Shown: positions 2 to 11,661 of the stretch, in pieces
How positions within the stretch are numbered: the first letter of the stretch is position 1
How the letters are laid out: each line of letters opens with the position of its first letter
Assembly: GCA_051382335.1 (NCBI GenBank)
Contig: JBBCAX010000356.1
Span: 1-11,661, forward strand
Origin: Deltaproteobacteria bacterium TL4
Lineage (GTDB): Bacteria; SAR324; NAC60-12
DNA: 11,661 bases
Direction: 5' to 3'
Program-made: the position numbers and the translations under genes
Notes under the pieces: generated by a model
Databases searched by the model: none
What the model saw: only the letters and a program-made list of their open reading frames with translations
What the model was told of the DNA's origin: nothing

Positions 2-346
2 TCTCCAAGACTCTTTCAACCAATAGGGGACTGACCCATCTCTATTAACAAGAATATCACTATAGTGATGAAAAATTTTACAGGCATAGGATTCACTGAC
101 GCCAAACTGTTTTCCCAACATGAAAAAGGTAGGGTAATGACGCAGATAAAAGAGGGTGAGCAACAGCTTATCCTCCAAAGATATTTCTGACTTGCACCCT
201 CTCTGCTGTAAAGGATTATTTTGGCGTGCCGCAGTCAGGTGATTAGTGACGGCTTTGCGCAGTTTTTTAAATTTTTTCAAAGGGATCCCGGTTTCTCGTG
301 TAAATTTCTCAGGTTTTTGGGTTCTCAATTTATTAAAGTAGCTCAT
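2..346 (-). CDS. IS5-family (ISL2/IS702-like) transposase, N-terminal HTH_Tnp_4 region; runs off the window and is possibly interrupted near position 46
   Basis: Not in the ORF track because the frame has no stop inside the window. ATG at 346 with SD AAGGAGG (+ strand cctcctt, 351-357). Manual translation: MSYFNKLRTQKPEKFTRETGIPLKKFKKLRKAVTNHLTAARQNNPLQQRGCKSEISLEDKLLLTLFYLRHYPTFFMLGKQFGVSESYACKIFHHYSDILVNRDGSVPYWLKESWR. The segments 'F.R.TG....F..L' and 'LEDKLLLTLFYLRHYPTF..LG.QFGVSES' match the helix-turn-helix of DDE superfamily transposases. Confidence 0.85.
   Translation of the reverse strand, partial: MSYFNKLRTQKPEKFTRETGIPLKKFKKLRKAVTNHLTAARQNNPLQQRGCKSEISLEDKLLLTLFYLRHYPTFFMLGKQFGVSESYACKIFHHYSDILVNRDGSVPYWLKESWR
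22..46. repeat. Short palindromic element AATAG-GGG-ACTGA-CCC-ATCT-CTATT (REP-like GGGGACTGACCC motif)
   Basis: AATAG (22-26) pairs with CTATT (42-46), enclosing GGG/CCC. It coincides with the point where the translation stops resembling a transposase (DILV|NRDGSVPY). Confidence 0.4.
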
Positions 347-8302: not shown

Positions 8303-8818
8303 ATGGGTACAGTAATCAGTTTCGCGGAGCGTCGCCAAGAACGAGATGTAAAAAAAAAAGAGGAAACCCTTCGTGGTTATATCACTTGGTTGCATTGTCC
8401 GACATGCAAAACCCTTGAGTATACCGAATTATATATGGCAGGGGGTCGTATCCATAAATGTGGAACTATGGTTGAGGAAAAAGGCGTTGAAATTGATGTA
8501 AGGGCAGAATATACCATTTGTCGAAGAAATCTGGATACTTTAAGCAGTTTTTTGGAAAAGAGTGACAAGTTGAAAAAGAAAAATAGCGTTAAAATTGTCA
8601 ATAAATTATTTGGTTCTGCCATACAAATCATCCGCCAAATGGAAGTTTCCGAAAAAGAATATATGAAACGCTTAGAGTTGATTGCGTCCACTTCAATCGA
8701 AACCTATCCCGATCAGTGGACCCCTCAGGATCACAATCTTGAAGTTAAAAAAATTGAGCCTTTTGGCGTTCTTTTAACCCCCGCAAGGCAATCCGATCTG
8801 TATTTTCCAAAACGATAA
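8303..8818 (+). CDS. Hypothetical protein with a putative zinc ribbon (CxxC...HxC)
   Basis: 171-aa ORF with SD AAGGA at 8295-8299. Contains HCPTC...IHKCG followed by a helical region. Confidence 0.75.
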   Translation: MGTVISFAERRQERDVKKKEETLRGYITWLHCPTCKTLEYTELYMAGGRIHKCGTMVEEKGVEIDVRAEYTICRRNLDTLSSFLEKSDKLKKKNSVKIVNKLFGSAIQIIRQMEVSEKEYMKRLELIASTSIETYPDQWTPQDHNLEVKKIEPFGVLLTPARQSDLYFPKR

Positions 8819-8838
8819 ATTAAGACCAGAAAGATAAC

Positions 8839-8934
8839 ATCGAGAATGAGCACTGCTCTGCTGAGCACGCTCAACGATATACGTTTTAGCGGCAAAAACT
8901 GTGTTTCTCCCCTGTACAGAGGACGTGGTTTGCC
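8839..8934 (+). other. Two tandem hairpins in the recR leader
   Basis: Hairpin 1: ATCG/CGAT (8839-8842, 8875-8878), TGAGC/GCTCA (8847-8851, 8869-8873) and TGCTC/GAGCA (8854-8858, 8863-8867). Hairpin 2: GGCAAA/TTTGCC (8891-8896, 8929-8934) with inner CTGTGT/ACGTGG G-U pairing. Confidence 0.4.
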
Positions 8935-8967
8935 ATAATTAAAACAAATTAACTTGCGGATATTGAT

Positions 8968-9570
8968 ATGGAACTCCCTGCCTCTCTGGAAAGATTAATC
9001 CAGGAATTTGCTCGCCTACCAGGAATCGGTCGAAAAACGGCTCAACGGCTTGCTTTCGGTGTTCTTCGGTATAATGATGAAGAAGCGTCTCACCTTGCAG
9101 AAGCCGTTTTAGGTGTAAAAAAACATATTCACTATTGTCAGATCTGTTATGGCTTTACCGATGTTGACCCCTGTCGCATTTGTCAAAACAGAACCCGCCA
9201 GCAAGAGGTTATTTGTATTGTAGAGCAACCGAATAATATTTTTTCTATTGAAAAAAGCCAAATATTTAAAGGTCTCTACCACGTTCTGATGGGATCCATT
9301 TCTCCGATGGATGGTGTGGGTCCAGATCAATTGAGAATACGAGAATTGAGAGAGAGGGTCTCTCAGGGAAAGATCCAAGAACTCATTATCGCGACCAATC
9401 CCACGGTACCTGGGGAAGCAACTGCCTTATTCCTGCAACATGAGTTCGAACGCTTTGTTCCTAAAATTTCACGACTAGCCAGGGGGTTACCTGCGGGTGG
9501 GGACTTGGAATACACTGACGATGTTACCATGGTTCAAGCTTTCTCAGGACGGGTACTCGTTCGCTCTTGA
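8968..9570 (+). CDS. recR: Recombination mediator RecR
   Basis: HhH motif LPGIGRKTAQRLA, C4 zinc finger CQIC...CRIC, Toprim elements ICIVE, YHVLMGSISPMDGVGP and ELIIATNPT, and C-terminal SRLARGLPAGGDLEYTD. Confidence 0.97.
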   Translation: MELPASLERLIQEFARLPGIGRKTAQRLAFGVLRYNDEEASHLAEAVLGVKKHIHYCQICYGFTDVDPCRICQNRTRQQEVICIVEQPNNIFSIEKSQIFKGLYHVLMGSISPMDGVGPDQLRIRELRERVSQGKIQELIIATNPTVPGEATALFLQHEFERFVPKISRLARGLPAGGDLEYTDDVTMVQAFSGRVLVRS

Positions 9571-9626: not shown

Positions 9627-10370
9627 TTATAAGACTTTTCTTTTTTCTCCGTGACGATCGACCCACATTGGAGTTTCCAAGGGGTCTTCCTGCTGCACTT
9701 TGGACTCAGGGATAAACAAGGTGATTCCCGCGCCTTTGAGTTGCTCTATTTGAGGTTGTACCTCATAAAATTGCTTATAGCTGGGAATCACGCAGAGAAC
9801 CCGGATCAAGGTTCCTTCTTCGTAATGAAAGCGGTAAAGGTGTTCGTTCCTGGCCTGGTATAAAAAATAAAATAAAAGATCCCGACTGATTTGCTCAAAG
9901 CTTCGCCAATAGTGGATGAAGTAAAGTCGTTTTTCACCATCCGGGAATTGAATGGTTGCCAGGCCTTCAGGCTTTAATTGTTGGGATTCATGTTCAAAAC
10001 GGGTAATCAGAGGCCGTCTTCCAAAATTTCCACCTCCAATCCATTGGATCAAGTTTAGATTACGATAATGGCTGAGTTCTTTTTCTATTCCAAACCGTAA
10101 TTGATTCACCGTACAAATGCGTTGTGCCAGTTGTTCCGTAAAGCTGTATTGAGGGTGATGTTGAATTCCCAGTGTCTGGAACCCTAGTGCCGTGAGGGAG
10201 AAACATTCGAAGCCTTGGAATACATGTCGATGGATGAGTTTCGCCCTTTCCGCCTGTGTGCGCATGTCCTTAATGGCTTTGAGGGAATCTTGAGGAAAGA
10301 GACGTTTGAGTAAACTGTAGTTCACTAGAGTATAATGATTTAAAACTTGTAAAAAATGCTTGCGTTCCAT
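9627..10370 (-). CDS. Replication-relaxation (Replic_Relax/MOB-C-like) family protein, apparently catalytically degenerate
   Basis: 247 aa. The N-terminal winged-helix-like part ends in 'FSLTALG'. It is followed by 'ICTVNQLR', 'LIQW', 'LKPEG', 'RLYFIHYWRS', 'RVLCVIPS' and C-terminal 'DPLETPMW', the order and spacing I recognise for this family. No clear SD. Assignment is by pattern recognition only. Confidence 0.65.
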   Translation of the reverse strand: MERKHFLQVLNHYTLVNYSLLKRLFPQDSLKAIKDMRTQAERAKLIHRHVFQGFECFSLTALGFQTLGIQHHPQYSFTEQLAQRICTVNQLRFGIEKELSHYRNLNLIQWIGGGNFGRRPLITRFEHESQQLKPEGLATIQFPDGEKRLYFIHYWRSFEQISRDLLFYFLYQARNEHLYRFHYEEGTLIRVLCVIPSYKQFYEVQPQIEQLKGAGITLFIPESKVQQEDPLETPMWVDRHGEKRKVL

Positions 10371-10840
10371 GGCAAATTATGATTAATACTCATACAAGGT
10401 CTATTTTCATAGGCTTGTGTTCTCTATTGTTTTTCCTGTGCGAATAGTCTCATCGCATCAATGTACATCAGATCGACGTTATTTCAGAACACTTGCACCA
10501 AGGGTACTGTAAGAACGTTTTTGTGCATATCATTCAGACCTAATCCAGTTTACCTGAATTTGGTTATTACGGAGGATGACCAAAGTTCCACTCGTGGACC
10601 ATTCATTCTCAATAAAGGCCGTGTTGTTCCAACACGCTCATTGGTTGAGACATTCTTTAATGGTCGTTGAGCTCGTTCCATTGGGAAACTCCAGATTAAT
10701 AAAGATTGCGGACTGCGGGGAGGCAGCCGGGATCTTCATTAGTCTGGAGTTTCCCGGAGTCTTGGGAAAAATAGTTATTGTAAGTTATTCCTTTAAAAAT
10801 GCAAATCGGTTTTTAAAGAGTTGTCGTCGTTTAGGTCAGT

Positions 10841-10880
10841 GGGAGTAAGCAATCCCTAAATTGCTTACTCCTTTGTTCTT
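10841..10880 (+). terminator. Intrinsic-terminator-like hairpin
   Basis: Perfect 12-bp stem GGAGTAAGCAAT (10842-10853) / ATTGCTTACTCC (10860-10871) with a 6-nt loop, followed by TTTGTTCTT. Confidence 0.55.
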
Positions 10881-11254
10881 GCTCAGATCGCCAACCCGCG
10901 TCCCTTCTTCTCTTCGGCATTTCCCCCAAAAACCTTTAGTAATATTTTACGCTGTGGCAAGAATTCCATGTTACTTCCTGTTTCAGACTACTTTTCGGTC
11001 TTTCTAAAGGGGCTCAAAAAATGGATTTTAAAGAGGAGTTCACTCTAAATGAATCAAAATAGTCACTCGATCGATTCAATCCCGATAATTCGGTGGTGTC
11101 CCAGATTGACTTTCAATAATTGTATGATGATATCAATCGTTAAATAAAATAACGAAACATAGCATGTCGGCTATTGAAAACACCTTATTGAGGAACAATA
11201 AGGTCTTGCAGTCCTGCTTCAGACATATAGCCCAATACCCGTGAATGAAATCAT

Positions 11255-11319
11255 GTTCGTAGTTCCGCCTTTAGGCGGTAAGCCTTGCAGAAAAGCCGCC
11301 TAAAGGCGGAACTACGAAC
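11255..11319. repeat. REP doublet (REPIN) of the GTAG type
   Basis: Perfect 24-bp inverted repeat GTTCGTAGTTCCGCCTTTAGGCGG (11255-11278) / CCGCCTAAAGGCGGAACTACGAAC (11296-11319). Each arm has GTAG followed by the internal palindrome CCGCC-N4-GGCGG. Confidence 0.85.
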
Positions 11320-11342
11320 TTTTCTCAATGACTTCAGAAAAA

Positions 11343-11511
11343 GGCTACCCACTTAAGCCGGGACAAATTCTAGTTCCCAAGCTCCAGCTTGGGAACTCAA
11401 CAACACGGAAGCTCTGCTTCCTTGAACTGAAGCTGGAGCTTCGGTTGGAGCATTCCCAAGCTGGAGCTTGGGAACGAGTTGGAATAGCTGTCCCGCCTTA
11501 AGTGTGTAGCC
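11343..11511. mobile_element. MITE-like element with 23-bp terminal inverted repeats
   Basis: GGCTACCCACTTAAGCCGGGACA (11343-11365) versus TGTCCCGCCTTAAGTGTGTAGCC (11489-11511): 21 of 23 positions complementary. No coding capacity and no obvious target-site duplication. Confidence 0.7.
11370..11478. repeat. Four-palindrome REP-like cluster (GTTCCCAAGCTCCAGCTTGGGAAC family) inside the MITE-like element
   Basis: Outer inverted copies CTAGTTCCCAAGCTCCAGCTTGGGAAC (11370-11396) and ATTCCCAAGCTGGAGCTTGGGAACGAG (11452-11478). Inner palindromes GGAAGC-TCT-GCTTCC (11407-11421) and CTGAAGCT-GG-AGCTTCGG (11427-11444). Confidence 0.85.
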
Positions 11512-11661
11512 GGAATCAATGATTGAATCCATTTTTAAACTACTGATAATACTCGACTTTGAACAATTTGCTCAATATTACTCCTGAATAAAATCAGAGA
11601 CTTATAAAGTCGTATTAGAATTAATGATAGGTTTGGCCTGAAAAACGGGAAATAATAACCT

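Follow-up and report, generated by a model that had tools for sequence, protein, structure and literature searches.

The window, an 11,661-nt stretch of DNA, is contig C356 of a 6.6-Mb genome, the sole member of its genus among 88 genomes of its phylum. We take the lineage to be SAR324, the source label ('SAR324 cluster bacterium') of a homologue of a protein encoded in the window (9627–10370). The window opens with the start of a DDE transposase gene (HTH_Tnp_4; 2–346, minus strand) truncated by the contig end, and within 8303–9570 it carries a gene whose 171-aa product contains Cys pairs, lacks a significant Pfam match and is present in 29 of 31 genomes; in 13 of the 19 loci retrieved from relatives, this gene immediately precedes recR. 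Beyond recR, which ends at 9570, lies an 851-nt single-copy gap (10371–11221, by repeat mask) bounded by a minus-strand gene for a 247-aa protein on one side and a mobile-repeat cluster on the other; in 13 relatives, synteny comparison showed recR to be followed by different genes and by no gap like this one. Within this gap, and itself single copy in the genome, is the region 10392–10880, for which an earlier note had proposed a multi-domain RNA of about 490 nt with a plus-strand G-U bias, ending in a terminator-like stem. The features of the locus are as follows.

9627–10370, minus strand: divergent gene for a 247-aa Replic_Relax (MOBC relaxase)-like protein with a winged helix and a PD-(D/E)xK fold
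10376–10403: possible overlapping divergent −10 elements, TATGAT on the plus strand (10378–10383) and CATAAT on the minus strand
10378–10394: 5-bp inverted repeat, read by eye
10392–10420, plus strand: P1, predicted 5' hairpin (pair p 0.60–0.68; local z −4.2 for a window picked post hoc)
10426–10437, plus strand: S1, putative switch strand, with either 10764–10775 (P2, the six-arm closure) or the terminator 5' arm (10841–10853) as its partner
10438–10458 and 10461–10528, plus strand: P3 and the nested arm P4 (pair p 0.72–0.99)
10532–10584, plus strand: P5, weak and rivalled by the GACCTAA arm (10537–10543), and P6, with an exposed ACGGAG loop
10591–10671, plus strand: P7, three nested 7-bp helices with internal loops (pair p 0.73–0.82; local z −2.7)
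10677–10758, plus strand: P8, a long rod with a GGGGAG apical loop, the main source of the folding signal
10791–10818, plus strand: P9, an A/U-rich hairpin
10831–10837, plus strand: TTAGGTC, pairing with 10537–10543 in an alternative fold only
10841–10880, plus strand: intrinsic-terminator-like stem of 13 pairs (10841–10872) with the tail TTTGTTCTT
11032–11091, plus strand: strong ribosome-binding site with an ATG at 11049, from which ~14 codons run before a mobile repeat interrupts them
11092–11661: nested mobile repeats, of which the outer one, MITE-like, starts at 11092; the others are REP-like palindromes and a 195-bp MITE

Of the evidence for transcription here, the terminator weighs most. 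The 3' stem of the earlier note was recovered, its U-tail lies on the plus strand only, and no plus-strand gene stands between recR and the stem, leaving it a one-way terminator with no gene to serve; when partial transcripts were folded, it formed with p 1.0 once complete. At the other end, a scan found no sigma-70 promoter on the plus strand. Of the two possible −10 elements, CATAAT came from that scan, and TATGAT was read by eye as a well-placed hexamer without a −35 match.

We assessed the region against known RNAs and related genomes. Among 4227 Rfam families, including the GOLLD, ROOL, OLE, HEARO and intron models against which the earlier note had suggested comparing it, none matched 10392–10880 at E values up to 5. 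The note's reading that the region has no signature of tmRNA, RNase P, SRP or 6S agrees with our model searches, which placed each of these genes on another contig. A group I or II intron was rejected on the lack of an Rfam intron match, a host gene and an RT or HNH ORF (a GUGCG is present at 10438, with no domain V seen by eye), and raiA RNA and a ColE1 RNA II-like primer were dropped after no match in the region to the Rfam raiA model and none to RNAI, respectively. BLAST against 41 and 88 related genomes returned only 18–37-nt chance matches outside the genome itself, and three single-sequence covariance models run over the 88 genomes (87 other than its own) gave no accepted homologue, the single outside match, in G017, being rejected as antisense within a 322-aa coding ORF. 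Models R1 and R2 found nothing in five chosen genomes at E up to 1 and nothing near two homologues of the helicase described below. Phage and plasmid records held no match, pattern scans of viral contigs were empty or led to candidates, of which 33 loci from one scan and 80 of the 104 stretches listed from another were examined with R1 and nhmmer, which found nothing, and a scan of genome contigs gave seven unrelated hairpins that shared only the searched arms. The 246 CRISPR spacers matched the region no better than a control region. Because single-sequence models are weak, we read this absence as "not found in those searched", that is, the genomes, phage and plasmid records and viral contigs. 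Among the 12 papers listed, of 591, in a search of the ncRNA literature for SAR324, none names this lineage, and the candidate tables in survey supplements could bear on novelty.

Folding energy was evaluated against shuffled sequences on both strands, as the earlier note had suggested. The region 10385–10885 folds at −164.4 kcal/mol on the plus strand (z −7.11) and at z −7.49 on the minus strand, with 0 of 100 shuffles as good in either case; because the two z values are similar, folding energy does not pick the strand. Two 300-nt windows of the candidate rank 8 and 11 among 970 single-copy intergenic windows, in the top 1% by z values estimated by regression on 305 shuffled windows, and ten other top-ranking regions are by eye REP-type palindromes, perfect inverted repeats or tRNA neighbourhoods. 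Splitting the candidate by part revealed that the rod (10676–10762, z −9.2) and the terminator (z −5.2) supply the bulk of the signal, with the 5' ~290 nt (10385–10675) at z −1.8 (8 of 100 shuffles as good) and 10763–10838 at z 0.1. This weakens the multi-domain claim without killing it, because the RNase P, tmRNA and 6S RNAs of this genome also score low (z −0.9, −1.4 and −2.5; 15 shuffles each); beside these three controls, the z of about −2 in the 5' part is ordinary for a genuine RNA. The GC content of the candidate is 41%, against 39% for the intergenic background and 46–50% for the three control RNAs, and such a near-background value counts against a structured ncRNA. The folding of single sequences is, as described in PMC3150283, insufficient to identify ncRNAs.

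These figures bear most directly on a reading in which there is no single RNA and the spacer is a composite of a decayed REP/MITE-type rod, the terminator of a lost gene and chance hairpins in T-rich DNA. We consider this the most serious competitor, with a substantial chance of being correct that nevertheless stays below even. It would explain why the rod and terminator hold most of the signal, why the rod folds equally well on either strand (z −9.2 on plus, −10.7 on minus) and why neither GC enrichment nor a homologue was found, and it suits a genome full of palindromic repeats and MITEs, several of them within 700 nt. P8 does resemble REP/REPIN and MITE palindromes, being long, nearly perfectly paired and able to fold whichever strand is taken, but it differs from them in being single copy, the genome having neither another copy nor a family of related arms, in having no target duplication that could be seen, and in standing among unrelated imperfect helices. 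Against the composite are also the hairpins that cover nearly the whole stretch, the plus-strand specificity of P4 and of the G-U helix excess, and six-frame searches against the genome itself that found no gene remnant in the region.

The strand signal was measured in several ways. At the ends of Watson-Crick stems of at least 5 bp, drawn from the folds of both strands, G-T outnumbers A-C by 12 to 4 (p 0.04 if a 50:50 split is expected, p 0.15 if the split set by base composition is), and cut-offs of 4 and 6 bp gave 14:6 and 8:3 (p 0.06 and 0.11). The strongest of ten measures tried was the number of local helices of at least 6 bp, G-U allowed, in 10385–10675: the plus strand has 23 where shuffles give 10.5, a number that 0 of 60 shuffles reach, and the minus strand has 11 where they give 9.7 (25 of 60 as many). 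P4 likewise folds on the plus strand (z −2.3) and not on the minus (z 0.1). When 207 of the 970 intergenic windows were tested, however, 8 reached the excess, 3 of them with the same asymmetry. The plus-strand G-U bias of the earlier note is modest, and its further step, to selection on the plus single strand, is not supported: about 4% of real intergenic windows reach the strand bias too, and no homologue was found in which compensatory changes could be counted.

Turning to the individual helices, we found every arm named in the earlier note, at most one base from the position given there. The predicted fold of the finished RNA consists of P1, a six-arm multiloop (P3–P8), P9 and the terminator, and it leaves out the CTTGCA/TGTAAG helix that had been proposed within P4. 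It also replaces the long-range GACCTAA/TTAGGTC helix, which had been thought to close a multibranch domain: that pairing has p 0.001 in the full plus-strand fold, forcing it costs 4.2 kcal/mol, and the multiloop is closed instead by 10426–10437/10764–10775 (p 0.79–0.99). In these models the GACCTAA/TTAGGTC closure would be at most a transient or alternative fold.

Such a fold does appear in partial transcripts. At 3' end 10859, before the terminator 3' arm exists, GACCTAA/TTAGGTC rises to p 0.76 and the strand 10426–10437 moves to the terminator 5' arm, capturing 12 of its 13 bases. At this decision point the two folds have equal energy, both −149.1 kcal/mol: fold A, with 10426–10437 in the multiloop closure, and fold B, with that strand on the terminator arm. 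Fold B is short-lived (p 0.31, 0.76 and 0.19 at 3' ends 10850, 10859 and 10866). Six of 120 shuffles capture the terminator arm as well at 10859, in tests selected after the fold had been seen, and the best duplex of the arm with upstream sequence, taken alone, is unremarkable (167 of 300 shuffles as good).

Past the terminator, the start at 11049 may be the stump of a downstream gene. Compared with 2757 long-ORF starts, its ribosome site has an energy inside the best 10% but outside the best 5%, and a site as strong occurs in 95 of 1336 intergenic pieces, a chance background of 7%. The outer MITE-like element that cuts it belongs to a terminal repeat type with 22 ends, and the 195-bp MITE, which begins at 11552 and continues past the contig end, has 48 matches with 6–8-bp target duplications. 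A matching 7-bp duplication suggests C158 as the continuation of the contig. There, within 20000–28222 (minus strand), a DrmD/BrxH-like helicase lacks its first ~225 residues right at a MITE end; next to it comes a 1523-aa ORF that looks intact and takes the position of a DNA methyltransferase on an E. coli plasmid. Because the 11049 start is cut by the MITE-like element and the helicase is truncated, we take the original downstream context to have been rearranged. As separate observations, mobile DNA lies in three nested layers at 11092–11661 and the end of G000:C158, and the helicase locus, with a GC of ~50%, is probably an acquired defence operon.

On the other side of the gap, the divergent 247-aa protein is replication-relaxation-like by Atlas and has no Pfam match of its own, and it aligns full length with the Pfam PF13814 protein of G008 in a profile match (probability 75.9, E 2.3e-5). 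Its structure model (pLDDT 95) has weak fold matches to nucleases and winged helices. PD...EID of the G008 protein aligns with PE...HYW in the 247-aa protein, and the acids are missing from the close relatives of the latter as well. MOBC relaxases are described as needing an acidic metal-binding triad (DEE motif; PMC6736028), and Replic_Relax-HTH fusions have been proposed as regulators (PMC3424549); because of this need, the replaced acids and the proposed role of the fusions, we infer that the protein is an inactive DNA-binding derivative of a MOBC relaxase. Its family profile has matches in 4 of the 88 genomes, including its own and the distant G008 protein, and a metagenome scan with the protein gave one spurious locus only. 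The G070 orthologue has a different gene 43 nt upstream, and the 400-nt upstream gap of the G009 orthologue holds a REP-type rod unrelated to P8; the G009 rod is a repeat also found in the present genome, and the alignment scores fall below the shuffled mean. Because neither orthologous locus has the RNA, the candidate is not a fixed partner of this gene.

This neighbour raises a second alternative, that the region folds as DNA and is the relic of a transfer or replication origin, either an oriT or a single-strand origin, formerly used by the neighbouring MOBC-type relaxase. An oriT adjoins relaxase genes and contains inverted repeats. The candidate lies directly upstream of the Replic_Relax-like gene and folds as single-stranded DNA at z −8.2, and the protein shares the fold of the relaxases in the MOBC–oriT systems of CloDF13 MobC and pAD1 TraX as described in PMC6736028 and PMC3424549. 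It differs from them in lacking the catalytic acids, and the upstream structure is not common to the G009 and G070 loci. Moreover, the window shows no recognisable gene for a coupling protein or for mating, and an origin leaves the one-way terminator unexplained; we judge this reading highly improbable.

Slimmer still is the chance that the region encodes a decoy RNA binding CsrA/RsmA through exposed GGA loops. The genome does encode CsrA, and the GGA motifs at 10571 (an ANGGAN hexaloop) and 10719 are fully exposed in hairpin loops. Csr decoys carry many GGA motifs, however, and just 2 of 11 are unpaired here. A csrA gene beside fliW points to control by protein, and the csrA of this genome adjoins a gene that by eye resembles fliW. 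No Rfam Csr or Rsm model matched, and no match to Hfq was found in the genome. The weakest alternative, a small protein gene or pseudogene with its own terminator (90-aa ORF, 10576–10848), would fit the position of the ORF's stop codon inside the terminator 5' arm but has the slightest chance of all given its codon score (−0.07 per codon, where three real genes score +0.05 to +0.09), a ribosome site too weak to be usable, no homologue found and low Atlas recognition (1142; best match 0.78). The codon score of a 69-aa ORF is likewise below zero. A type I toxin mRNA was also dropped, the hydrophobic 22-aa ORF at 10379 having no ribosome site.

We return to 10390–10880 as one structured non-coding RNA of ~490 nt on the plus strand. 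It is the best single reading because the terminator is one-way, no plus-strand gene precedes it, the G-U excess is on the plus strand only and no coding signal was found; our confidence in it is evenly balanced, the likelihoods given here being matters of judgement and not computed. The plus-strand transcript would run divergently from the Replic_Relax-like gene to the intrinsic terminator, and its default product would be a 5' hairpin, a six-arm wheel closed by 10426–10437/10764–10775, one further hairpin and the terminator. As its mechanism we favour a two-state RNA whose 3' end would be conditional. In fold A, with 10426–10437 held in the wheel, the terminator would form and a stable free RNA would be released. 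In fold B that strand would take the terminator 5' arm, beside the GACCUAA/UUAGGUC helix, and could permit read-through into the putative gene starting at 11049, now broken by the mobile repeat; a bound protein or an antisense RNA might set the balance between the two. Within the even chance given to the single RNA, such an attenuating leader takes the somewhat smaller share, and a free protein-binding RNA in which the alternative fold is incidental takes the larger. A bolder form, which we think quite unlikely, is a new class of large (~490-nt) two-state RNA in which one strand would alternate between closing the wheel and capturing a terminator 400 nt off, and a domesticated, catalytically dead MOBC relaxase, transcribed divergently from a shared promoter region, would read the RNA or be co-regulated with it.

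Comparison with known systems places the candidate as follows. Large structured bacterial RNAs are described in PMC12286853 as rare, several known classes being still without an assigned function. The candidate resembles ROOL, GOLLD and OLE, as presented in PMC12286853, in size class, in its many helices around multiloops and in the lack of coding signal, but it has no match to their Rfam models, it is one member where those classes have covariation across many (PMC12286853), the window holds no tRNA and no recognised phage gene, and only one 6-nt loop complement could serve for kissing loops. Like large ncRNAs in general, it is non-coding, folds beyond background and has a defined predicted 3' end. 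In its long intergenic region, and in having fewer than five representatives and no consensus model, it matches the lowest named rank of the GC-IGR screen (PMC8632094), whose candidates it differs from in its GC of 41% against a 39% background, and it would be at best low-ranking by the ranking described there.

Long-leader attenuators include T-boxes, riboswitch platforms and the antisense-controlled rep leaders of pT181 and pIP501. With them the candidate would share an intrinsic terminator set against a predicted upstream competitor for its 5' arm, plus a possible downstream gene start, but it differs in having no T-box or aptamer match, no intact downstream gene and a competing helix that spans ~410 nt. 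A terminator switch over a 400-nt range, if true, would be unusually long for an attenuator, and the RNA, if it proves to be a new large structured one, would come from a little-studied lineage and invite probing and cryo-EM. Coming from one sequence, the candidate is a lead, not a discovery.

Several further observations were made on related loci. The ~250-aa Replic_Relax/MOBC derivatives form an unnamed family of about ten relatives at 20–60% identity, without the catalytic acids, and possibly represent a domesticated relaxase working as a DNA-binding protein. In G009 (L004, 2205–2314) the final ~63 bases of the orthologous gene are tandemly duplicated right after the stop. At G000:C189 (~11040–11220) lies a perfect inverted repeat, ~45 bp and single copy, that encloses a long internal loop and has no Rfam match. 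At G008:C93 an intact Replic_Relax relaxase stands behind an 861-aa ORF, a possible coupling protein, and adjoins vWA-, phosphatase- and kinase-like genes (by eye), which points to a likely integrative mobile element.
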